Origin: a virus
IMG/VR virus record: IMGVR_UViG_3300029118_000005
Reading direction: 5' to 3' (one strand)
Length of the DNA stretch: 64,000 nucleotides
This document shows, piece after piece, positions 20,133 to 64,000 of the stretch. The position numbers and the translations under genes were made by a program. A model generated the notes under the pieces. That model did no database searches, was not told the DNA's origin, and was given only the letters and a program-made list of their open reading frames with translations. Positions within the stretch are counted from its first letter, which is position 1; every line of letters begins with the position of its first letter.

Positions 20133-20232
20133 CTGTTTTACCTCCTGTGCGATAATGTATTCCTGTGATTACAAATCAGTTGCCAGGCAGTCACAGGTTC
20201 TGCTTTTCGGGAGCTACCCTAGGCAACTGGAG

Positions 20233-20316
20233 CGCCGCGAGAAGGATTCGAACCCTCAGTCCTTTTACAGATCACTAGTTTTCAAAACTAGCCCAGTACC
20301 ATTGTGGCATCGCGGC
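20233..20316 (-). tRNA. tRNA-Ser (anticodon UGA)
   Basis: Reverse-strand cloverleaf. Acceptor is GCCGCGA/TCGCGGC. Anticodon stem CTAGT/ACTAG carries loop TTTGAAA. The variable arm is 17 nt and the T arm is GAGGG-TTCGAAT-CCTTC. No CCA is encoded. Confidence 0.8.
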
Positions 20317-20320
20317 AAGA

Positions 20321-20405
20321 CGCAATCGACAGGGGTTGAACCTGTAAGCCGAAGAAACGACCGACTCCTTAGCGGGGAGTTCCAATACCATTATGGGACG
20401 ATTGC
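20321..20405 (-). tRNA. tRNA-Ser (anticodon GCU), with C at position 33
   Basis: Acceptor is GCAATCG/CGATTGC. Anticodon stem ACTCC/GGAGT carries loop CCGCTAA. The variable arm is 18 nt and the T arm is ACAGG-TTCAACC-CCTGT. Confidence 0.7.
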
Positions 20406-20411
20406 AAAAAG

Positions 20412-21224
20412 TTAAATATTCCTCCATTCATCTTCCGAATATTCTTTTATTTCAGTTGACTTTTTAGGTAAATTGTATTTATCACACCATTTACGTATCG
20501 CATTGTCCGACACACCAAACATAATTCCGATCTGAGTAAATGGAACAGTCCTGATTAGTCTCTTTAACTCCTCACGGGTTATATTTCTTAATGGAGTGAT
20601 CGTTTTCTTTGGAGACTTTTTCTTCTTTTTCTTTTTTCTGTGATATTTTGAATAACAAAGATAGCAAAGATTGCTTTTATTGTTTTTTCTAATCGTTTTA
20701 CCACATTTTTTACATGTGTTTCTAGCTCTCTCTTTTATTCTTTCTTTTACTTTTTCTGAATTATATACTCCGAAGTTGTCTGTTAAACTATGACAATTAG
20801 GACATAGAATTTGCAAGTTTTCCAACGAATTGTTATCATGATTTCCATCAATATGATGTAATTGTAATTTAATCGGTTTTCCCATCCATTCGGAATTTCC
20901 ACACAATTCGCATCTTTTTTCTTTATACCCAAGTTCTATGAGCTTATTTTTAAGTTTGTGACTATTAACTTTTGTATTTGGCATCAACTTTGACTGAATG
21001 TCATAAACTTCCTTTCGATTTTGGTTGCATTTCAGTATATAATTGCGTTTATTTTCTTCAAATTTAGTGGTATCTAAATTGTATTCTTCTATGATTCTTT
21101 TTAGTGTTACAGTACTACTCGCACTTTTTATTCCTGCTAATTCCAATATTGATTTATATGTACTATGCGTGTCAATCAAGGATTGTAATTCTTCAGGAGT
21201 GAAATTATACAGCTTACTACTCAT
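20412..21224 (-). CDS. HNH homing endonuclease with C-terminal HTH
   Basis: CELCG...LHHIDGNHDNNSLENLQILCPNCH is the HNH motif. Inserted between the two tRNA groups. Confidence 0.8.
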   Translation of the reverse strand: MSSKLYNFTPEELQSLIDTHSTYKSILELAGIKSASSTVTLKRIIEEYNLDTTKFEENKRNYILKCNQNRKEVYDIQSKLMPNTKVNSHKLKNKLIELGYKEKRCELCGNSEWMGKPIKLQLHHIDGNHDNNSLENLQILCPNCHSLTDNFGVYNSEKVKERIKERARNTCKKCGKTIRKNNKSNLCYLCYSKYHRKKKKKKKSPKKTITPLRNITREELKRLIRTVPFTQIGIMFGVSDNAIRKWCDKYNLPKKSTEIKEYSEDEWRNI

Positions 21225-21281
21225 TTAGACTCCTTTTTATATCGTAAGAGAATTCTTATAAGAATTATCTGTTGCTAATAT

Positions 21282-21352
21282 TGCGGAGAGATGGACTTGA
21301 ACCATCAACTCTGGCGTATGAAGCCAGCAAGCTCCCTTTGCTCTATCCCGCA
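21282..21352 (-). tRNA. tRNA-Met-like (anticodon CAU), imperfect acceptor stem
   Basis: Anticodon stem CTGGC/GCCAG carries loop TTCATAC. T arm is GATGG-TTCAAGT-CCATC and D arm is GAGC-AAAGGGA-GCTT. The acceptor strands pair only partly in either register. Confidence 0.45.
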
Positions 21353-21353
21353 G

Positions 21354-21425
21354 TGAGTGATAGGAGACTCGAACTCCACAGTCTTAATTAAAGGTTAAGT
21401 GCTCTACCAGCTGAGCTAATGGCAC
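21354..21425 (-). tRNA. tRNA-Lys-like (anticodon UUU), poorly paired acceptor stem (possible pseudo-tRNA)
   Basis: D arm is GCTC-AGCTGGTA-GAGC. Anticodon stem CTTAA/TTAAG carries loop CCTTTAA, and the T loop is TTCGAGT. Acceptor GTGCCAT versus ATCACTC pairs at about 4 of 7 positions. Confidence 0.4.
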
Positions 21426-21427
21426 AA

Positions 21428-21498
21428 CAGGGCTAGTTGGACTCGAACCAACAGTGCAGGAATCAAAATCCTGTGCCTTACCATTTGGCGATAACCCC
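21428..21498 (-). tRNA. tRNA-Gln (anticodon UUG)
   Basis: Acceptor is GGGGTTA/TAGCCCT (two G-U pairs). D arm is GCC-AAATGGTAA-GGC. Anticodon stem CAGGA/TCCTG carries loop TTTTGAT. T arm is GTTGG-TTCGAGT-CCAAC. Confidence 0.8.
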
Positions 21499-21513
21499 AG
21501 CGTGATCTTATCC

Positions 21514-26233: not shown

Positions 26234-26310
26234 TCTATGCCGCCTCCTTCCTTTCTAGCTTTTTGTCGTGAATAAATATGGTTAAACCTTAGCCTTTCCC
26301 CTTCAAACGT

Positions 26311-26352
26311 CTTCTAGCCGCCTTCTGTGCCCTTCTAGCGCCCTTCTGTGTG
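26311..26352. repeat. Two tandem 21-bp repeats (CTTCTAGCCGCCTTCTGTGCC / CTTCTAGCGCCCTTCTGTGTG)
   Basis: Read directly, about 80 bp upstream of the TerS-like start. Confidence 0.8.
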
Positions 26353-26520
26353 TGCTCATCGTGTCCAGCTCTCGTCTGTGTCCGTCCTGGCTGTCTGTCC
26401 TGACTGTGTGCCGTCCTCATCTGCCGCCTGTCTGTGTATCTCTCGTCTGTTGGCTGTCTCTGGCTTGATCATCTGTCAGTTGTCAACTGTCAGCTCCTGC
26501 ACTCTGTATCTGTATATACT
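26340..26520. repeat. Strand-asymmetric CTGT/CTGTC-rich, A-poor low-complexity tract
   Basis: Recurring words are TCTCGTCTGT, GGCTGTCT and CTGTCAG. Contains the palindrome CAGTTG-T-CAACTG near 26477-26489. Confidence 0.75.
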
Positions 26521-26765
26521 TAGATACACTATACACATACCTACTTACTAGATATCTATATACAGTACATACAGATATACTATACATATACCTTGTACAT
26601 ACTGTATCTATACATACTCACCTTATATATACTGTACATATATACCTTATACAGACATACTTAATATATATTATCAGATAATATATTAAATATACCGATA
26701 GTATATTAAATATATATACCATATACATATACAGTAAATATATATACTGTATATATTATATATAA
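26520..26765. repeat. G-poor TATACA/ATACTGTA low-complexity tract
   Basis: Many ATACTGTAT / ATACAGTAT words. Includes a perfect inverted repeat TACAGTA-N8-TACTGTA at 26730-26751. Confidence 0.75.
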
Positions 26766-26797
26766 GGAAGCGACACGGAAAAGCTGTAGGCCTGGGG

Positions 26798-26928
26798 AAA
26801 AGAAAAAAGCCCACGACCAGAAAAAGAAGCACCGTGTTTCAGCACGGCTTGGAATCTTTTCCGATCATGGGCTATATACTCTATATATCCATATCTAGGC
26901 TACATATAAATACTATATATAGTAGCTT
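26798..26928 (-). ncRNA. Candidate small RNA ending in a long branched terminator
   Basis: Minus-strand promoter has TTGATT (26958-26963), 17 nt, then TATTAT (26935-26940). The outer stem GCCCAUGAUCGG/CUGGUCGUGGGC pairs fully only in the minus-strand RNA (three G-U pairs). It encloses hairpin AAGCCGUG/CACGGUGCUU and is followed by UUUUUUCUUUU. Confidence 0.35.
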
Positions 26929-27028
26929 GATTACATAATACAACAATATGAGGTGTAAATCAAGTTAAATATTTTTAAAAACGCAAGTTGCACAAATTGA
27001 ATATAACAATTTAAAAGTCAGAAAACAT

Positions 27029-29625: not shown

Positions 29626-29928
29626 ATGAAGAGAACAAAAAATATGATTTATAAGGCATCCGATGAAGCAAGAGAGCTGTTTTTATATGCTACTAACTCA
29701 GGCGTTTTGTATGATCGCCAGATTAAGCCGAGTATCGAAAACCTCAGAAAAAAAGCAAGAAAGGGGACCTTTGATAAAGACAAGGCGGCAGACCTCTTTT
29801 ACTATGTAGCCACAAGCGCTTCGGCCATGTATAATAGAGATTTTGGATTTAGCTTTTCTGTCCAGCAGCGCTTTACAGCCGCGGTTGATATGGTTGATTT
29901 TTACATTGATGAAATAGAAGAGATTTAA
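29626..29928 (+). CDS. Hypothetical protein
   Basis: 100-aa ORF with AAAGGAAG RBS. Confidence 0.45.
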   Translation: MKRTKNMIYKASDEARELFLYATNSGVLYDRQIKPSIENLRKKARKGTFDKDKAADLFYYVATSASAMYNRDFGFSFSVQQRFTAAVDMVDFYIDEIEEI

Positions 29929-30006
29929 GCCGAAACGCCCAAGGCTGGGCGTCCGTTGGGGATTGCCTCCCAGCGCTGATGATGGCAGGCAAGAAAGGGA
30001 AAAGTT

Positions 30007-30369
30007 ATGACAACATTACACATTATTAAGTTAAGTGAGAACGCCCCAGCTATGGCGCACGGTTTCCACTATAACGTCCAGATCTGGACGAAGGACAGCG
30101 GCCGTGGCTGGTGCTATGCCGGAAATGGTAAGTTTTTAAAGGCTGCAGATGAGGTTCTGAGATATGGCAAGGAACACGCCGAGTTTTACAGTGATGACAT
30201 GTACAAGGATTTTTACGCCTGTATGAGTGAGGAAGACGTTGTATATTTTGTAGGGGTTTACAAGTGGCACGCCTTCCGCGTATATCCAGACGGAAAAATT
30301 ACAAAGGCAACTGAGCAAGAACGCGAATTGGCCGGAAAATGGCTTGAAAGAGAGAAAGGAAAGCGATGA
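30007..30369 (+). CDS. Hypothetical protein
   Basis: 120-aa ORF. Its N-terminal half is paralogous to the next small ORF. Confidence 0.45.
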   Translation: MTTLHIIKLSENAPAMAHGFHYNVQIWTKDSGRGWCYAGNGKFLKAADEVLRYGKEHAEFYSDDMYKDFYACMSEEDVVYFVGVYKWHAFRVYPDGKITKATEQERELAGKWLEREKGKR

Positions 30370-33337: not shown

Positions 33338-33408
33338 ACAGTTCTTGACAGTATTTTACATTACTTTACATTATTATACATTATTTTACATTAAAATAAT
33401 GTCAAAAT
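33331..33408. repeat. Junction motif copy A: six 10-bp-phased TTTACA-type repeats ending in the palindrome ACATTAAAATAATGT
   Basis: ttattttaca|gttcttgaca|gtattttaca|ttactttaca|ttattataca|ttattttaca|ttaaaataatgtcaaaat. Confidence 0.8.
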
Positions 33409-38113: not shown

Positions 38114-39673
38114 TTACTCACCTTCCTCCTTCGGTTTAAGATCTGCCTTGTAAGAGCTTAAATGTTCTTCTATAGTTTCAAGACTATTGGATTCCTCTGG
38201 AATCAATCGGTTGAGATAATATAAAAAAGAATTATAAGCCTTTGCTGTGCAATAATACTTTTCCTTGCCATTCACCGTAACTATTCGACCTCTAAATGAT
38301 GTCGGGGATGCATTATCAATTAAAGATTTAGAAAAGTCCAGTGCAGACTGCTTGACCATTCTTAGAAAATATTCAAATGCGGTGGCGCTTGATGAAAGAA
38401 ATCTGGACCAAATCAAATCTAGGTTACTAGAAAACTCATATTTTTTAAGTTCAGTCGGATTCTGCTTGCCACTAGCCATCTGAATATTGTAGGATAATAC
38501 ACCAATTTCATTTGTAATATAACGGCATAGTTCAATGGCAACAGATATGTAATCTGCAAAGTTAGGATCGAGATTCGCTGTAAATCTTTTTGAACATTCA
38601 TCGACAAACTTCATTGCCTTAGAGTCATACATCATTCCACAAGTTTGAAAGCCTGCGTTGCTAATTCCGATTAAGCGCAACCATGTAACAGTGTCTTGAT
38701 TGCTGTAAAGTATCTTGTCGAGTAGTTGCCACAATGGAACATCGTTAAATAAGCGAAGTGGTTTAGCACTGTTACTATTTAAAATGTAAAGTGCCATGGT
38801 TTCAGCTACAACACGTTCTTTATCAAAAAACTCCCCACCCAATGCATTAAATCCGGTTATGACCCCATTTTCACGCTTGAGAAATATCCTGCGCGATTGG
38901 TGCGTGAATAATTCCGCTGGGTTAGAAGGTGGATCAATCTTTTTGCGCTCATCGGATCGTGGCGAGCATTCCCATATTGGGCAAGGCTTAGGCCACAATT
39001 CTCCATTACCATTCTGTAAAGGAACTAGGTTCATCATAAGTGTTTCAAAAAGATTTCGCCCGATTGCGTAAACAATAGTATTTTGCCCCAACCATCCAAT
39101 ACTGATTGAAGGCAAGCCTGTCCTACTTGGCTTTACAGAAACATCGTCATACCCGTTGATAAAAAGAAGCCATCTAGCCGCTTCTGCATATGTTAGTTGC
39201 ATTTTTGCTTCTCCACTTCTTGCTGCAAAAATTCGTACCTTGTTGTTGCTTTCAGAAATTTCTCCGTTTAACTTTGCAGCACCAAAAGCAGTTCCTTTTT
39301 TAGCTTCGTTTGCCTGATAGAATGGAGCATCAGGATGAAAAAGCCAGAAACGTTCTCTGTATTCTTCTAAATATTTTAAAAACGTTTCTGGAAAATGACC
39401 GAGACTCCAATAACTTTTCCAACGGCTGATTGCTTCATCCCTGTTTGAAAGTGGAATTTCATCACCGTTTGAGTCGAATCTTGCGAATCCAGAATGAGCA
39501 ATTGCAAGAAGTAGCCGTATCATTGCGACATTTTGAGTATCTGTTTCACCTGCCAAATCCATGTATTCATGACTGCGGGCGAAAACTTCTTTAAGTGAAA
39601 CTTCTTTAATAGTATAATTTGGAAGCAATACACGCACCCAGTTTTCATCAAGCAAATTAAATTCTTTCTTCAT
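38114..39673 (-). CDS. cas8e: Cas8e/Cse1 (CasA)-like protein, full length, orphan
   Basis: Six segments are collinear with E. coli and T. thermophilus CasA as I recall them: FNLLDENWVRV, VAMIRLLLAIAH, GHFPETFLKYLEEYRERFWLFHPDAPFYQ, LTYAEAARWLLF, GRNLFETLMMNLVP and CPIWE. 519 aa. Confidence 0.75.
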   Translation of the reverse strand: MKKEFNLLDENWVRVLLPNYTIKEVSLKEVFARSHEYMDLAGETDTQNVAMIRLLLAIAHSGFARFDSNGDEIPLSNRDEAISRWKSYWSLGHFPETFLKYLEEYRERFWLFHPDAPFYQANEAKKGTAFGAAKLNGEISESNNKVRIFAARSGEAKMQLTYAEAARWLLFINGYDDVSVKPSRTGLPSISIGWLGQNTIVYAIGRNLFETLMMNLVPLQNGNGELWPKPCPIWECSPRSDERKKIDPPSNPAELFTHQSRRIFLKRENGVITGFNALGGEFFDKERVVAETMALYILNSNSAKPLRLFNDVPLWQLLDKILYSNQDTVTWLRLIGISNAGFQTCGMMYDSKAMKFVDECSKRFTANLDPNFADYISVAIELCRYITNEIGVLSYNIQMASGKQNPTELKKYEFSSNLDLIWSRFLSSSATAFEYFLRMVKQSALDFSKSLIDNASPTSFRGRIVTVNGKEKYYCTAKAYNSFLYYLNRLIPEESNSLETIEEHLSSYKADLKPKEEGE

Positions 39674-42818: not shown

Positions 42819-43586
42819 TTATTGGCAGAATCTAAGTAGTTCTTTTGTGAACTGCATATAGTCAATGGCAGCGTTACACTTTGAATCAAATTTCATGAGA
42901 GTTGTTCTGGTTGCCTGTGCCTTTTGTACAGCAATGCTTTCACGAATAGTTGTGCAAAAAACCTTTGTGTTGAGCTGCTTGGCAATTTCTTCTAAAGAAT
43001 TTTTAACTTCCTGAGCGAGGAGTTGACGGCTCTTATATTTTACTAGTAAGAGTCCTGCAACCTCTAGGTTAGGATTATTTCTTTTCTTTACGCCTGTGAT
43101 GGTTCTGTTAAGTTCTGAGAGGCCTTGAATAGCATAACGGTCTGCAGTGACAGGAATGATGACTTTGTTAGAAGCAATTAAACAGTTTTTAAGCAATTTG
43201 TTGTCAGCCGGAGCTGTATCAATAATAACATAGTCATAGCCAGTTAATTCAGCAAGAGCATCTTTTAGTCTAAAATACTCGTTCCCGTCACTTGGGAATC
43301 TTTGATCTGCTGTTTTCAGCTCTGGATCGGATGCGACTATGTCACCGATTTCTGTTTTTTGAATAGCTTCCGCAATTGGAAGTGGATCTTCAATGTCTAA
43401 AATAACATCGTAGAGAGTTGCCGTATCTTTGGATACTGCTCTATAAGTATCAGTGCTGTTACCCTGCGGATCAGCGTCAACCAGTAAGACCTTCTTGCCT
43501 TGCGACATTAAAATTGACGCAAGTGTAGTGGCTGTTGTGGTTTTTGCAATGCCGCCTTTTTGATTTGCAATGCATATTACTTTCAT
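42819..43586 (-). CDS. parA: ParA/Soj-family partition ATPase
   Basis: Deviant Walker A (IANQKGGIAKTTT) and LLVDADPQGN. 255 aa with AAGGAGG RBS. Confidence 0.85.
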   Translation of the reverse strand: MKVICIANQKGGIAKTTTATTLASILMSQGKKVLLVDADPQGNSTDTYRAVSKDTATLYDVILDIEDPLPIAEAIQKTEIGDIVASDPELKTADQRFPSDGNEYFRLKDALAELTGYDYVIIDTAPADNKLLKNCLIASNKVIIPVTADRYAIQGLSELNRTITGVKKRNNPNLEVAGLLLVKYKSRQLLAQEVKNSLEEIAKQLNTKVFCTTIRESIAVQKAQATRTTLMKFDSKCNAAIDYMQFTKELLRFCQ

Positions 43587-44049: not shown

Positions 44050-45993
44050 TCATGACTCCTTGATTGTTAGCTCTTTAGAATCAGTTCTTTTGAGAACAAT
44101 AAGCTGCCTGTCTATATCTGGTATTTTCCAGCCATCAACAGACTCCGAGTCATCTACGATGATAGGAAGGGTAGTAGCGTATTTCTTCTGAAAAGCCTTA
44201 CAAACATCTGTCTCGATTAAGATTTTTGCACCGTGATTAAGGTTTCTAGCGTATGGTTCACCGTTTACACAGAAATCACACGTTTCTTCTAGGTCGCCAT
44301 TCACAAGCTGCCTGAAAAATTTTACTTGGCAGTACTCTAAATACTCGTTTACTTTACTTTCCAGAAGCTCATGCTTGCGGATATTGAAGCGTTTCAGCAA
44401 GTCGAGTTGTGCCTGTGTATCTGCAATTAGCTGCTCATTCTTTCGGCGCTCGATGTTAAGCTCTGCAACTCTTGCGTCAATCTTGACATTGATTTCGGTT
44501 TTTGCAAGCTCTGCTTTTAAGCCTGATAACTGATGCTGAAGATTATTTTCTTCTGCCTTGAGCTGTGCAAACGTTGCATTTGCAGTATTTGCTTCTAACT
44601 GGCTTTCAAGCTTTACGATTTCTGCAGATCTGGTTTTTGCTGTCTCGTCTGGCTCTGCTGGAGGTGCAGTGGATATAACTTTTTTCTGAGCAACTAAATC
44701 ATCGACAACTCTTGACTTTTTATTGGATTCTTCACGAAGGGTAGAAAGCTCTGCATCTGCAGCATTGAACTTTTCGCGTAAAGCATCAATAGCTTCTTTA
44801 CATTTCATTCCATCGTCTGTGATTTCCTGCAACTTTTCTTCCTTTGATTCTTCAAAATGCTTTCGCATTTCATCCTGCTGATCAGATGGGTATTCACGCT
44901 TGCAATACGGGCAAATCAGCAAATTTTCATCAAATTGCATATCTTTATTGCTTTTCCAGTCACTTGAAAGCTTCAAACGCTTAGTTTCAAGATCCCGAAT
45001 CTCGGAGTCAATCTGGTGCAATTCATGCTCTTTGGCATTTAAACTACTGTTGGATAGGAAAAGTTCTTCCCTTGCTGCCATAATCTGAGCATCTAAATCG
45101 GCAATTCTTTTCCTGTTTTCGGCATTAGCGTCATCAGTGGCTTTTAATTGCTCCTGCTTCAACTTATAAATTTGTGCCTGAATTGTACGTTGCTCATCAA
45201 ATGCCTTCTGCACATCAGCTTGTTTACTCTGGTTATCTTTCAGTCTGCTTTCAATATCTGTAATCTGGCTGTTTATCAAGGCTTCATCAATGACAATTTT
45301 CTGCTTTTCCACCTCATCAATGCGGCTTGGAAACTCTTTGCGAATATCAAGCAGTCCTTTAGTGCCATTCCTTCCGCGTCTGCCATTCAGCATAGTGTTG
45401 AATTTTGACTTCAATTCATCAACACTGCCATCATCCAACAATGGGAGAAGAGGGGAGAACTCTGGAAAACGTTCACAAACCTCTGCATTGGAACACGTTC
45501 CAAAGGTGGATTCCAAGATTGATCTGCAGTCGGCGGCACTCTTTGACAAGAGCGTTTTGGCGTTGATCAAGTTAGAAAGTTCGCTCACAGGAACCAATTT
45601 TTCTGCAATAAAATCTTCATAGTCACACTTCTTTTTAGGGATATTATTGATATAATAGTCAATAACATTACCCGTGAAGTCACCCTTTTTATTGTAGTTC
45701 TGACGAGAGACCTTTTTAAATGTCTTGCTGGAACCGTTAAGCTCTACGGTCATCTCGACTGTAACCTCAATATCGTTAATCTCGTTACCTGATTTATCAT
45801 GTGGCCTGATTCCGGTAATTTCTTCGCCGTTCTCACCCCTACAATTCAGTACCCAAAAAATAGCCCTCTTAACTGTGCTTTTTCCAGATTCATTACATCC
45901 AGATACCTCTGTCTTATTGTATAAATCTGTGTCTACAGTTTTCCCATTGTAAAAGCTGCAAAAATTATCTAACTTCAAATGCTTAATTCTCAT
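44050..45993 (-). CDS. Rad50/SbcC-like SMC-family ATPase with CxxC zinc hook
   Basis: Likely start is ATG 45993 (MRIKHLKLDNF). Walker A is GCNESGKST. A long coiled coil carries a central CPYC, and Walker B is LPIIVDDSES. Confidence 0.7.
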   Translation of the reverse strand: MRIKHLKLDNFCSFYNGKTVDTDLYNKTEVSGCNESGKSTVKRAIFWVLNCRGENGEEITGIRPHDKSGNEINDIEVTVEMTVELNGSSKTFKKVSRQNYNKKGDFTGNVIDYYINNIPKKKCDYEDFIAEKLVPVSELSNLINAKTLLSKSAADCRSILESTFGTCSNAEVCERFPEFSPLLPLLDDGSVDELKSKFNTMLNGRRGRNGTKGLLDIRKEFPSRIDEVEKQKIVIDEALINSQITDIESRLKDNQSKQADVQKAFDEQRTIQAQIYKLKQEQLKATDDANAENRKRIADLDAQIMAAREELFLSNSSLNAKEHELHQIDSEIRDLETKRLKLSSDWKSNKDMQFDENLLICPYCKREYPSDQQDEMRKHFEESKEEKLQEITDDGMKCKEAIDALREKFNAADAELSTLREESNKKSRVVDDLVAQKKVISTAPPAEPDETAKTRSAEIVKLESQLEANTANATFAQLKAEENNLQHQLSGLKAELAKTEINVKIDARVAELNIERRKNEQLIADTQAQLDLLKRFNIRKHELLESKVNEYLEYCQVKFFRQLVNGDLEETCDFCVNGEPYARNLNHGAKILIETDVCKAFQKKYATTLPIIVDDSESVDGWKIPDIDRQLIVLKRTDSKELTIKES

Positions 45994-46116
45994 CGTTTCC
46001 CCTCTTTCCTTCGTCATCGGTTTCATTTGCGCTTGATGCAGCACACAAAGCAACTGCAAGCACACCAGTAATTCCGCCGAATAATAGTCCTGCTATTAAA
46101 CCAATTAAAAAATCCA
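45982..46116 (-). CDS. Small TM protein (44 aa)
   Basis: MDFLIGLIAGLLFGGITGVLAVALCAASSANETDDEGKRGNDEN. The end overlaps the ATPase start. Below the ORF-track cutoff. Confidence 0.3.
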
Positions 46117-61330: not shown

Positions 61331-61651
61331 TTAACAATCCTCCCAATCAATCTTCTGTCCACATTTTGAACAATAGGAAGCAAGGCAATCATTTATGATG
61401 TTTCCACATACAGAGCAGCTACATGCGTTCTTGTCTGCTAGAATAACCAGTTTTTGTGGAACCTGCTTTTTAAGAGCGCTATGTGCCTTCATGAATACAA
61501 ACGCGGTTCTCATTGATTTTTCAACTGCCTTGTAGTCCTTTTTCTTCAAGGCTTGCTCAGTTGCTCTGGTGCAAGTATCAAGTTTCTTCTTTAATATCTT
61601 CAAGGCTTCTTTATTGCTCATTTGCTTTTCCTTTCTTACAGGAACGGACAT
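61331..61651 (-). CDS. Zinc-ribbon protein ending in CxxCGQKIDW motif (paralog family)
   Basis: CSVCGNIINDCLASYCSKCGQKIDWEDC. Confidence 0.45.
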   Translation of the reverse strand: MSVPVRKEKQMSNKEALKILKKKLDTCTRATEQALKKKDYKAVEKSMRTAFVFMKAHSALKKQVPQKLVILADKNACSCSVCGNIINDCLASYCSKCGQKIDWEDC

Positions 61652-62364
61652 GTTTCGTAATTAAACAATTGCCAGGTCTTACCTGCTTCTGCAACGTCCA
61701 CATTTGCCATTCTTGCAACTTCTTTTATTCTTACTAGCATTTCCTCTTGTACTGCATTATTTGCGCTTAAATGGCAAATAATGACGTTCTGGAGTGCGTC
61801 TGTTGTGTTAGCTTCTATGAAGCCTGCACACGTTTCTAATTCCATATGCCCCTTAATGACATGCAATCGTTTACCAGTGACATCCTCTGAAATGTACTTC
61901 TTTTGGTAATTGCAAGACACCAGGATATGGTCAATATCCTTAAATCGCCACCTTACAAACTCCGTATCAGTAATGTAGAGCATTCGCCCCATCTCTGGGT
62001 GCTCGATGATGAATCCATAGCACGGGCACTCTGTACCGTCTGCATCGGTATGTTTGAAGTGTCCATGCACATCATTCATTGGAACTGATACAATTCTAAA
62101 TTCACCATAGCCACCGATATAGGAGTTATCTTCATAAGGTTTGTAGACTGGGATTCCCATTTCTTCCAGATCACTGACTGCTTCCGAGTGATCTCCGTGT
62201 TTATGTGTGACAACACATCCAACAATATCAGATACTTTCCAGTCGCAGCCCTTTTTGATCTTCATGATTGGGATTCCTGCATCAAGAAGAAGCATCTTGC
62301 CTTTGTTATCCTTTAAAACATAGCAATTACCAGAACTGCCGCTGGCTAAGCATGTTAGAATCAT
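61636..62364 (-). CDS. Metallo-beta-lactamase-fold hydrolase
   Basis: The motif VVTHKHGDHSEAV (HxHxDH) and N-terminus MILTCLASGSSGNCYVL. Confidence 0.75.
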   Translation of the reverse strand: MILTCLASGSSGNCYVLKDNKGKMLLLDAGIPIMKIKKGCDWKVSDIVGCVVTHKHGDHSEAVSDLEEMGIPVYKPYEDNSYIGGYGEFRIVSVPMNDVHGHFKHTDADGTECPCYGFIIEHPEMGRMLYITDTEFVRWRFKDIDHILVSCNYQKKYISEDVTGKRLHVIKGHMELETCAGFIEANTTDALQNVIICHLSANNAVQEEMLVRIKEVARMANVDVAEAGKTWQLFNYETCPFL

Positions 62365-62385: not shown

Positions 62386-63024
62386 TCATCCCTCCACACT
62401 TTCGATGTGGTAGCGACCGTAACCGCTAGTTCTTCCACTTCCAATTCCGTTTCCAAAACCTGCAAGACGAATAATGTTTAAGATCTGTTCCAGAGAATAT
62501 GCATTCTCCGTATATTGAATTGTAAATGTTGCACTCCATCCGCTAAATCTATTCAGTCGTACAAGTACCGGAGCGCCCTTCTTTGGCGACATAAGTTTTT
62601 CGTCAATAAAATGTTCCGCAAACTTGATTGGAACCAGATTGCCCTTTGCAATGACATTTACAGCGGCATTGAACTTAGTTGCGTAAGTATCAATCTTGTT
62701 CTGTACAACAGCCTGTCCAAACGACTTTTTCAAACCAAATGCTGTAATGCACGGTGCATTGTTGGTCAGTGCTTCTCTCAAACCTTCCTCTGTGAAATCT
62801 GTAGGCTTTCCACCATACCAGTGCATGGCAGTGATCACTTCTTCCCATACATTTGTAGCTGCTGTGTCCTTAGCCTTGTTCTTTCTCTCGTCAGTAAGCT
62901 TCCTGGCGCTACAATCATTCATTTTGTTAAGCACCAGGTCCCCATCACCTGCAATAGTAATTCTTGCCTGCTTGATGCTTAACGGCTTTAATTCGATAAC
63001 CTGTGTTTCTTCCTTCTTTGTCAT
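62386..63024 (-). CDS. Early protein with C-terminal RAMP-like glycine-rich loop (function unknown)
   Basis: Likely start is ATG 63024 with AAGGAGAA RBS. It ends ...LAGFGNGIGSGRTSGYGRYHIESVEG, and GIG-x5-GYG matches the G-h-G-x5-G-h-G RAMP loop pattern. Confidence 0.3.
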   Translation of the reverse strand: MTKKEETQVIELKPLSIKQARITIAGDGDLVLNKMNDCSARKLTDERKNKAKDTAATNVWEEVITAMHWYGGKPTDFTEEGLREALTNNAPCITAFGLKKSFGQAVVQNKIDTYATKFNAAVNVIAKGNLVPIKFAEHFIDEKLMSPKKGAPVLVRLNRFSGWSATFTIQYTENAYSLEQILNIIRLAGFGNGIGSGRTSGYGRYHIESVEG

Positions 63025-63081
63025 AATTTGTTTTCTCCTTTTTTGTTTTGGTCTAAGCTTCCGCTCAAGATGCGACACAAG

Positions 63082-63090
63082 TGTTATAAT
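63082..63090 (+). promoter_or_regulatory. Extended -10 element TGTTATAAT (plus strand) facing into the repeat region
   Basis: Perfect TGnTATAAT with no good -35. Similar elements are TGTTATATT (about 63581) and TGTTATATAAT (about 63612). Confidence 0.35.
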
Positions 63091-63760
63091 GTTGTGTCAT
63101 ATACTGCTCTGTGCTATTTTGTATTGCTCTGTAATATTATGTATTGTGGCTTATGCCGCGTCTCAAATGGAAGCTTTAAGTGTTCTGGTAACACTTGCAG
63201 GCAACATGAAATGTTTTGTACTGCCTTGTTGTGTTATGTCATGTCGTGTCCTGTTATGTGCTGTCTTGTTTTGTAATGATTGGCAACTCATGTTGCCTGC
63301 AAATGCTACCAGTTTATTTTTATGGTATCCACTCGGTATATAGCATAAACTATGCATAATTATGTATATTGTTGTATTCTGTGATGTTTTAAACTATCCT
63401 GTACTTTGTTATGACATATTGCTTATGCCACATATAGAATGGATACCTTTTGCGTCGTGTTATGTACTATTCTGTCTTGTATTATTCTGCCTTGTACTGT
63501 TTTGTTTTGCTATATTCTGTTCTGCCCTGACTTATGGGCTAGCATAAAGCAACAAATAATCTGTTTTGTGGTGTTGTGTATTGTTATATTCTGTCCTGTC
63601 CTATCACTTTTTGTTATATAATTGAGACTTACTTGCTGCCTCATGTTAGCCCATAAAATTTGCTTAACTCGAATGCTCTGTGAATGATGCAATGTTATGT
63701 GCTGTTGTGTCGTGTTATGTTCTGTCCTGCGCTGTTATGTTTTTGACATATGAGCCATTT
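63090..63760. repeat. Non-coding array: long hairpin stems enclosing T/G-rich (TGTTATGT / CTGTCCTG) low-complexity loops
   Basis: Three inverted repeats are visible. The first is 63195-63209 / 63288-63302 (15 bp, perfect). The second is 63324-63343 / 63431-63447 (imperfect). The third is 63532-63545 / 63643-63656 (13 of 14). TGTTATGT-like words occur about 8 times, and 15-nt tandem units lie near 63467-63511. Confidence 0.75.
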
Positions 63761-63825
63761 CTTTTCTCAGATGGTGCATACCGTTACACCATCCATAGAA
63801 CACTCGAATTAAGCATTGAAACTGT

Positions 63826-64000
63826 TTAGACGGCTATCTTGTCGATTTCTTCAAATACGCTCTCTAACTCAGAAAGCGACTTATACCGATTTTGAAAGCT
63901 TCTCAGCTCTGCGTAAGCCCTCTGCAGCAACTTCTGATACTCGTCATGTTGTGTTGCAAAATGTGTTGTCGGCATATACACATTTCTCTGGCTTGTGATC
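63826..64000 (-). CDS. C-terminal end of an unidentified protein (CDS enters from beyond the window end)
   Basis: The reverse frame is open from 63999 to TAA at 63826-63828. It ends ...HDEYQKLLQRAYAELRSFQNRYKSLSELESVFEEIDKIAV. Confidence 0.4.
   Translation of the reverse strand, partial: ITSQRNVYMPTTHFATQHDEYQKLLQRAYAELRSFQNRYKSLSELESVFEEIDKIAV

Follow-up and report, generated by a model that had tools for sequence, protein, structure and literature searches.

The DNA analyzed here (the window) is the 64,000-nucleotide (nt) stretch of the IMG/VR virus record IMGVR_UViG_3300029118_000005, and our subject is a non-coding array close to its end (63040..63825, minus strand), together with the genes on either side of it. 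Repeat and period analysis resolved the array into five hairpin-enclosed tracts of tandem pentamers and one linker tract. Upstream of it, in the minus sense, is a gene that we call gene X (63826..64000, minus strand), of which translation of the window gives the 3' end (the last 58 codons), the rest lying beyond the window end; directly downstream is a vipr-like gene for a 213-amino-acid (aa) RAMP protein (62386..63027, minus strand), whose ATG at 63027 is preceded by an AGGAG ribosome-binding site. We compare this locus with VIPR (Viral Interference Programmable Repeat), a system of a Vipr protein and vrRNA described in 2026, for example in Escherichia phage SUSP1 (bioRxiv 10.64898/2026.04.26.720920 and 10.64898/2026.04.26.720927). 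No credible open reading frame (ORF) is present in 63040-63825; the region is non-coding, as had been judged in a first-pass annotation made from the letters alone. Its plus strand is 42% T and 22% A. A scan against Rfam, which that annotation had proposed, gave no match to the region at gathering score, the large phage-associated RNAs ROOL, GOLLD, and HEARO included, and two chance-level matches alone at E ≤ 10 (a plant miRNA and U6atac). A blastn search of the region against 50,697 phage records found no homologue for the non-coding part.

Five tandem inverted repeats were recovered by repeat search, with arms of 25-39 nt that are 74-92% complementary and loops of 64-78 nt; the stems of the five units differ from each other in sequence. 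In order of transcription from the minus strand, unit 1 (63661..63815; arms 63777-63815 and 63661-63699) has a 39-nt stem with 30 Watson-Crick pairs and 6 G.U pairs in the minus sense. It encloses tract T1 (63693..63742, minus strand), whose 10 units read AAACA TAACA GCGCA GGACA GAACA TAACA CGACA CAACA GCACA TAACA, the final two overlapping the 3' stem arm. Unit 2 (63532..63656; arms 63629-63656 and 63532-63559, 28 nt) encloses tract T2 (8 units, 63562-63601), and tract T3 (13 units, 63458..63522) follows as a linker between units 2 and 3 without a stem of its own. The loop of unit 3 (63324..63447; arms 63418-63447 and 63324-63353) holds a degenerate tract in which ACA, ATA, and other units are mixed. 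Unit 4 (63185..63312; arms 63288-63312 and 63185-63209) has a 25-nt stem with 23 Watson-Crick pairs and 2 G.U pairs in the minus sense; it encloses tract T4 (13 units, 63212-63276), which is preceded by a small 5' hairpin, GGCAAC-AUGA-GUUGCC (63282-63297). Unit 5 (63055..63176; arms 63150-63176 and 63055-63081) encloses tract T5 (12 units, 63090-63149). All of these features are on the minus strand. Every repeat word and stem arm quoted in the first-pass annotation is present where it had been placed. The three inverted repeats reported there are real, with arms of 25-30 nt that are longer than was given, and two more (63055-81/63150-76 and 63661-99/63777-815) bring the total to five. The alternative pairing with a nearby GGCAAC, also reported there, is one case of a small hairpin that recurs 5' of tracts in the minus sense.

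The loops and the stemless block at 63458-63522 keep a strict 5-nt register, which reads TGTNN on the plus strand and NN-ACA on the minus strand, with an occasional TAT or TGC in place of the plus-strand TGT. Pairs of TGT words are spaced 5, 10, 15, and 20 nt apart 29, 26, 28, and 25 times, respectively, and never 4 or 6 nt apart. The word TGTNNTGTNNTGTNNTGT has 13 copies in the window, all within 63227-63725, where shuffles expect 0.01; TGTTATGT has 6 exact copies and 15 with one mismatch, and within the window every one of them is confined to the region. The 15-nt tandem units that had been noticed earlier are indeed present, each consisting of three pentamers, and the 5-nt period beneath them had been overlooked, along with the neighboring RAMP gene and a role as guide RNA. 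We agree with the first-pass annotation that the region is not a CRISPR array; the only direct repeats are those of the pentamer register, and identical 24-40 nt repeats with unique spacers are absent.

Several lines of evidence bear on which strand is transcribed. In the stems of the window, 15 of the would-be mismatches are G.U pairs in the minus sense, versus 4 in the plus sense. Across 79 distinct stems from the window and its relatives (described below), there are 1,790 Watson-Crick pairs, 300 pairs that are G.U in the minus sense, 66 that are G.U in the plus sense, and 33 others. The minus strand folds at -212 kcal/mol versus -131 ± 6 kcal/mol for shuffled sequence (z = -12.8), and the predicted fold comprises five clean hairpins with open A/C-rich loops; the plus strand reaches z = -3.6. 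Both genes flanking the array sit on the minus strand, and the sense of the tracts is that of the RAMP gene, as it is at canonical VIPR loci. The G.U asymmetry, the fold z scores, and the gene orientation all point to a minus-strand RNA that shares its sense with the flanking genes. The gap from the stop codon of the upstream gene to the first stem is 10 nt, from which we conclude that the array is most likely cotranscribed with its neighbors.

The first-pass annotation had leaned toward the other strand, with one or more RNAs carrying U/G-rich loops and running rightward from extended -10 boxes. The strings in question, TGTTATAAT, TGTTATATT, and TGTTATATAAT, do exist on the plus strand, and one stem mismatch, in the third of the repeats reported there, is a G.U pair in the plus sense only. 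Promoter-like sites are nevertheless no commoner in the region than in shuffles (3 versus 4.5 ± 2), the -10-like strings being by-products of TGT-TA units; the single plus-sense pair is outvoted by the counts given above, which together with the fold scores weigh against a plus-strand RNA; and tracts share the sense of the RAMP gene both in relatives and at canonical VIPR loci. We therefore regard a plus-strand RNA as highly improbable.

In the window and its relatives, 59% of tract contexts lie within a long stem, versus 0% when the (3') flanks are shuffled. The 28 nt 5' of tracts fold at a mean of -5.6 kcal/mol versus -2.4 kcal/mol in shuffles, a small local hairpin being far commoner there than in shuffles, while the 28 nt 3' of tracts fold as shuffles do. 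The first-pass annotation had proposed a covariation analysis in related phages; among orthologous stems, 38 variant pair types retain pairing and 14 disrupt it, with 4 double compensatory changes. Within one genome, units also tend to share their loop-closing pairs, for example GGCTTGT...ACAAGCC in one relative (L092, 2550-2980), and the upstream regions of two others (L089 and L086) show the same trend; in the window and its close relatives the loop-closing motif is GGCATAA...TTATGCC, unlike that of L092. Such a lineage-specific motif may mark a recognition or processing site that coevolves with the protein.

The relatives come from a large family. A search with the RAMP protein in a library clustered at 90% identity yielded 2,344 matches at E ≤ 0.001, mainly from gut metagenomes. 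Two sets of loci were compared. Of the 80 taken from IMG/VR, about 60 belong to near-identical phages (85-92 kb) and about 20 to phages of about 57 kb with 77-80% identity; genome bins (Lachnospiraceae, Oscillospiraceae, Blautia, Faecalimonas, and others) supplied the other 19, with 50-74% identity. With few exceptions, ACA (or ATA) gives the strongest period-5 triplet signal of the locus, and this signal lies on the gene-sense strand, within 2-5 long hairpins immediately upstream of the RAMP gene; this association reaches relatives at about 50-57% identity in Lachnospiraceae and Oscillospiraceae bins. The number of units per tract is 6-20, most often 9-13. Over 105 distinct tracts of the window and relatives, the first and second N hold 0.05 and 0.14 bits of information, and the A, C, and A positions hold 1.73, 1.47, and 1.85 bits (A in 96%, C in 91%, and A in 98% of units); since the tracts were chosen for ACA, the high values of the triplet are partly by construction, and the near-random NN alone is informative. 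TA-type units such as TAACA are overrepresented in the tracts.

Phages with 98-100% identical RAMP proteins and near-identical stems carry at least seven unrelated NN versions between one stem pair; between the same stems, unit numbers vary and loop lengths shift in 5-nt steps with ACA kept in frame, and insertions and deletions in the region are multiples of 5 nt. The T5 allele of the window was found in no other array examined. Judged by this variation, the tracts behave as exchangeable information cassettes on a fixed scaffold. The same pattern bears on whether the region is simply a DNA element, such as a replication origin, a packaging site, or cruciform-forming iterons within a recombination/replication module. 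The location between RecT/gene X and an SSB-containing module would suit such an element, as would the repeats and inverted repeats. A double-stranded DNA site, however, gives no reason for strand-asymmetric tolerance of G.T, a fixed triplet with two free bases that are replaced wholesale would be unexpected, and the array travels with the RAMP gene and not with replication genes. We consider this explanation, which the first-pass annotation had offered as a replication/packaging element, to be very improbable.

The protein encoded next to the array was examined by Pfam, structure prediction, Foldseek, and profile comparison. It has a weak match to Pfam RAMPs at its glycine-rich C terminus and belongs to an uncharacterized PHROG. 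An AlphaFold (AF2) model built from 38 homologues (mean predicted local distance difference test [pLDDT] score of 81) has one RRM core, a helical insertion, a long beta-hairpin thumb (residues 138-162), and a glycine-rich loop (residues 192-205; GFGNGIGSGRTSGYGRYH) between the last helix and the last strand. In a Foldseek search of solved structures, the best 50 matches are all Cas7-family RAMPs (Csm3, Cmr4, and type VII Cas7), with E values down to 2e-5 and TM scores of about 0.45-0.5. No other cas genes are present at the RAMP locus, and none is adjacent to the gene; like Vipr proteins, this is a stand-alone minimal RAMP outside a CRISPR locus, on phage contigs of 57-92 kb.

A tblastn search of GenBank phages with the RAMP of the window gave weak matches alone, to hypothetical proteins of Gordonia phages and Felix-O1-like coliphages, and the flanks of those genes carry textbook GGY/NN pentamer tracts. 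Profile alignment (hhalign) of the RAMP with gp19 of Gordonia phage ODay gave a probability of 92.8% and an E value of 3.9e-7 over 184 columns, and ODay gp19 in turn matches PDB entry 36pp, "SUSP1 Vipr protein," at an E value of 1.8e-4. The RAMP profile also has a weak direct match to HY02 gp089 (E value of 7e-5, over the C-terminal 55 residues). By these profile comparisons, the RAMP of the window is homologous to the Vipr proteins of phages with GGY/NN pentamer tracts. In SUSP1 Vipr, D177 and W178 contact the two guanines and R179 holds the pyrimidine (bioRxiv 10.64898/2026.04.26.720920 and 10.64898/2026.04.26.720927); these three residues align with S197, G198, and R199 of the RAMP of the window. 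All ACA-type relatives keep GIGSGR unchanged, even those at 50% identity, and GGY-type proteins have G(D/E)WRP. As read from this alignment, the guanine-reading positions of the protein are altered in the clade whose RNA has lost the guanines.

In the published system, Vipr is a phage-encoded minimal RAMP of ~20 kDa that binds vrRNAs, each a tandem run of 9-16 pentamers composed of a conserved GGY and a hypervariable NN; a conserved 3' tail follows, which in the SUSP1 clade is a pseudoknot. The protein forms a helical filament with one protomer per repeat, in which GGY is sequestered and NN is presented, and the NN bases pair with DNA in which every third target base is skipped. In nature the system targets competing phages, satellites, and prophages; seven types are described, with NNNGG, YNNNG, and NNNNG as alternative repeats, and the system is also described as a possible ancestor of CRISPR effectors (for all of these points, bioRxiv 10.64898/2026.04.26.720920 and 10.64898/2026.04.26.720927). 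The features that the present locus shares with these systems are a phage-encoded minimal RAMP (about 20-24 kDa) made up of an RRM core, glycine-rich loop, thumb, and helical insertion; intergenic RNAs of about 9-16 tandem pentamers with three fixed and two free bases; free bases that are hypervariable among relatives; several units per locus; a small conserved partner gene; tracts in the sense of the RAMP gene; and detectable protein homology. We therefore think it likely, with good confidence, that the periodicity, strand, structure, conservation pattern, and protein homology observed here are those of an array of vrRNA-like guide RNAs of a VIPR-family system, used by the adjoining RAMP. Of the options listed in the first-pass annotation, several structured non-coding RNAs working with a protein is thus the one that best fits the region, and its decoy option is disfavored along with the replication/packaging element.

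From the homology with SUSP1 Vipr, we infer how the RNA would be bound, processed, and decoded and what it would target. A minus-strand transcript would carry six tracts, of about 8-13 NN-ACA pentamers each, together with gene X and the RAMP gene. The 213-aa RAMP would polymerize along a tract with one protomer per pentamer, hiding ACA and exposing the two variable bases as a gapped guide, and the combined NN bases would read a gapped DNA sequence of competing mobile elements, with silencing to follow. The long stems would either bound the ends of the filament or be cut by a double-strand-specific (RNase III-like) RNase that frees the units, and the small 5' hairpin may act as a handle. Long imperfect duplexes flanking a functional RNA are familiar from two RNase III substrates, the rRNA operon stems and the tracrRNA:pre-crRNA duplex. 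Cutting of the stems would resemble the release of rRNA from operon stems, and the present locus shares with these systems long flanking duplexes in tandem within one transcript; it differs in that cleavage is a prediction here.

Two other systems offer partial parallels. In the backbones of Class 1 CRISPR complexes, Cas7, Csm3, or Cmr4 is assembled on the crRNA; the RAMP here is of the same fold family and, by homology, would likewise place one protomer on each fixed-length RNA segment by means of a base-flipping thumb. The locus differs from Class 1 systems in lacking a repeat-spacer array, other cas genes, and adaptation genes, in having segments of 5 nt with 3 bases hidden rather than 6 nt with 1 hidden, and in interleaving the constant and variable parts within the guide. 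The sites of TRAP (trp RNA-binding attenuation protein) consist of 11 (G/U)AG triplets spaced 2-3 nt apart, with one subunit bound per repeat, and thus resemble the tracts in having a fixed triplet, a period of about 5 nt, and roughly a dozen repeats in single-stranded RNA. TRAP, however, is an unrelated protein that forms a closed ring, its spacers carry no information, and no RAMP is involved; the early idea of a TRAP-like ring protein wrapped by a closed loop was dropped given the adjoining RAMP and the VIPR papers.

The kinship of the protein with Cas7 also raises the prospect of an RNA anti-CRISPR or decoy, in which the phage RNA and the RAMP homologue would form aberrant complexes with Cas proteins of the host. 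RNA-based anti-CRISPRs that mimic repeats are known, and the same phage has an orphan Cas8e homologue without other cas genes. Nothing in the region is CRISPR-repeat-like, though, as its stems all differ; the period is 5 nt and not the 6-nt segmentation of Cas7-bound crRNA; and the RAMP groups with the Vipr proteins of pentamer-tract loci. This leaves an anti-CRISPR role very unlikely.

A number of observations weigh against a VIPR-like guide RNA array and have to be set beside the likenesses. In place of GGY, the constant triplet reads ACA (more rarely ATA or GCA), and a terminal G is common to the published alternative repeats, NNNGG, YNNNG, and NNNNG. The units here share neither a 3' tail nor a pseudoknot. 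The similarity of the RAMP to SUSP1 Vipr is transitive only, as the direct comparison of the RAMP profile with 36pp is weak (E value of 0.31). The partner, gene X, lacks a recognizable DNA-binding fold (model pLDDT of 75; no significant fold match), and neither a promoter nor a terminator was found on the minus strand. Finally, no target was found for any tract above shuffled controls in the window and the fetched loci, and two further tests of the NN bases gave no support. When the tracts were taken as codon positions 1 and 2 and the resulting degenerate peptides were compared with 5.8 billion proteins, none of 545 candidates had E ≤ 10. NN composition does correlate with codon-position composition (r = 0.73), but single-position base composition explains all of this correlation (residual of -0.15), and the codon-like composition is therefore not independent support.

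The target searches were of several kinds. Comparison of 82 tracts of at least 9 units with the window and 24 loci, at skips of 0-3 nt, gave a trivial self-match at skip 3 alone. IMG/VR was searched with exact seeds of 8-9 units from five tracts at a 1-nt skip, and for T4 at 0- and 2-nt skips as well. T4 had 0 matches at any of the three skips; T1 had 6 matches, none of which extends; T5 had 6, the best with 10 of 12 units, which is about chance level; and the common allele of a close relative (L001) had 1, without extension. The T3 seed at a 1-nt skip matched 108 contigs from giant-virus bins (L108-L215), none of which extends; the match is to a conserved giant-virus protein motif, K-N-V-S-E-I-S-E-V. 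Gapped NNx patterns act like peptide patterns and can gather homologous genes instead of targets. In a metagenome scan for nine in-register ACA triplets, (ACANN)8ACA, there were at least 120 matches, which were simple microsatellites; none of those listed had at least 6 different NN.

These results bear most directly on a reading in which the RNA serves as a scaffold, store, or regulator for the RAMP without a role as a DNA guide, be it in an RNA-targeting complex or through titration of the RAMP or of a host protein that recognizes ACA. Such an RNA would need no DNA target, and none was identified under any skip rule; the overrepresented TA units, such as TAACA, look more like filler than information, and several loops are degenerate, as in unit 3. 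On the other hand, a pure scaffold has no need of near-random NN composition, the NN bases are exchanged wholesale between otherwise identical phages with the frame retained, and the homologous proteins function as guide-presenting filaments. On balance we find a role without DNA guidance unlikely, though less so than the other alternatives considered here.

If the array does encode guide RNAs, its differences from the published systems may define a type of their own. The residues that read the guanines, D-W in the glycine-rich loop of SUSP1 Vipr, are S-G here (S-G-R versus D/E-W-R), and each hairpin-enclosed tract is closed by a 25-39 bp imperfect, unit-specific stem, often with a small 5' hairpin. 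The hosts are gut Clostridia, and the product of the partner gene has no recognizable DNA-binding fold. The main text of the VIPR preprints mentions neither ACA nor hairpin-enclosed units, and the published VIPR types all keep guanines in the fixed part of the repeat. We lean, by a modest degree, toward a previously undescribed VIPR-like type, in which the GGY scaffold word has been recoded to ACA together with the change of the glycine-rich loop from D/E-W-R to S-G-R, in which guides are delimited by long stems and not by a 3' tail, and in which the decoding rule (the skip length, and whether the target is DNA or RNA) may differ from the 1-nt skip. If this is true, the hidden triplet of the pentamer code would itself be evolvable, and the ACA clade would represent a natural second scaffold "alphabet," a direct test of protein-repeat coevolution, and a second protein-RNA pair, orthogonal to the first, for use in engineering. 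The family, common among the phages of human-gut Clostridia, may influence how the phages of dominant gut bacteria compete. The cassette-like turnover of tracts also raises the question of how new guides arise without adaptation machinery.

The neighboring genes were compared across the same relatives. The full product of gene X is 145 aa in relatives (2772-3209 in L001) and belongs to phrog_15946, of unknown function; it has no Pfam match, and its only resemblance, weak and non-significant, is to the winged helices of MarR and forkhead proteins. A VIPR locus has two genes, one of them an accessory (vap) gene. Gene X stands beside the array and the RAMP gene in 21 of 24 diverse loci, and its sequence context makes it a candidate for such a vap-like gene. 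The RAMP gene is followed downstream by one for a 242-aa hydrolase with a metallo-beta-lactamase (MBL) fold (61636..62364, minus strand). It is probably not a core part of the system, because it is present in closer relatives only. The idea that it is a partner like Cas14 of type VII was rejected, as it is not conserved beyond close relatives and has no PADLOC match. The order of genes in the close relative L001 is RecT, gene X, array, RAMP, MBL hydrolase, and, further on, SSB.

Elsewhere in the window, the orphan Cas8e/Cse1 homologue (519 aa, 38114-39673, minus strand) matches Pfam CRISPR_Cse1 with an E value of 8e-70 and PADLOC Cas8e with an E value of 5e-68. No other cas genes were recognizable among its neighbors; as a large subunit of Cascade that stands alone in a phage, it might serve as an anti-CRISPR decoy. 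A type II hammerhead ribozyme (29928-29994, plus strand; 52 bits in Rfam against a gathering score of 37) lies exactly between the plus-strand ORFs 29626-29928 and 30007-30369, 33 kb from the array. vrRNA arrays interspersed with hammerheads are reported in the VIPR preprint (bioRxiv 10.64898/2026.04.26.720920 and 10.64898/2026.04.26.720927).

A second long non-coding region, at 26260-26960, begins with a C/T/G-rich CTGT/GTC block (26300-26500), followed by about 250 nt of ATATAC/TATACA-type repeats and then by a G+C-rich hairpin region. The TGT-rich part at 26.3 kb was considered as a relative of the array and found to be unrelated, without a 5-nt period; the region as a whole could be an origin or a partition site. 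At 33338-33393 (plus strand), directly after a hairpin, 6-7 copies of a 10-nt unit (TTTACATTAY-like) separate the plus-strand gene block from the minus-strand block and are iteron- or operator-like. The minus strand also encodes a ParA-like partition protein (42819-43586) and an SbcC-like ATPase (44050-46065); because a ParA gene is present, the phage may persist as a plasmid-like prophage. Five tRNA genes (Ser-TGA, Ser-GCT, Met, Lys, and Gln) are located at 20162-21499 on the minus strand, adjoined by an int-alpA RNA motif (50 bits in Rfam).

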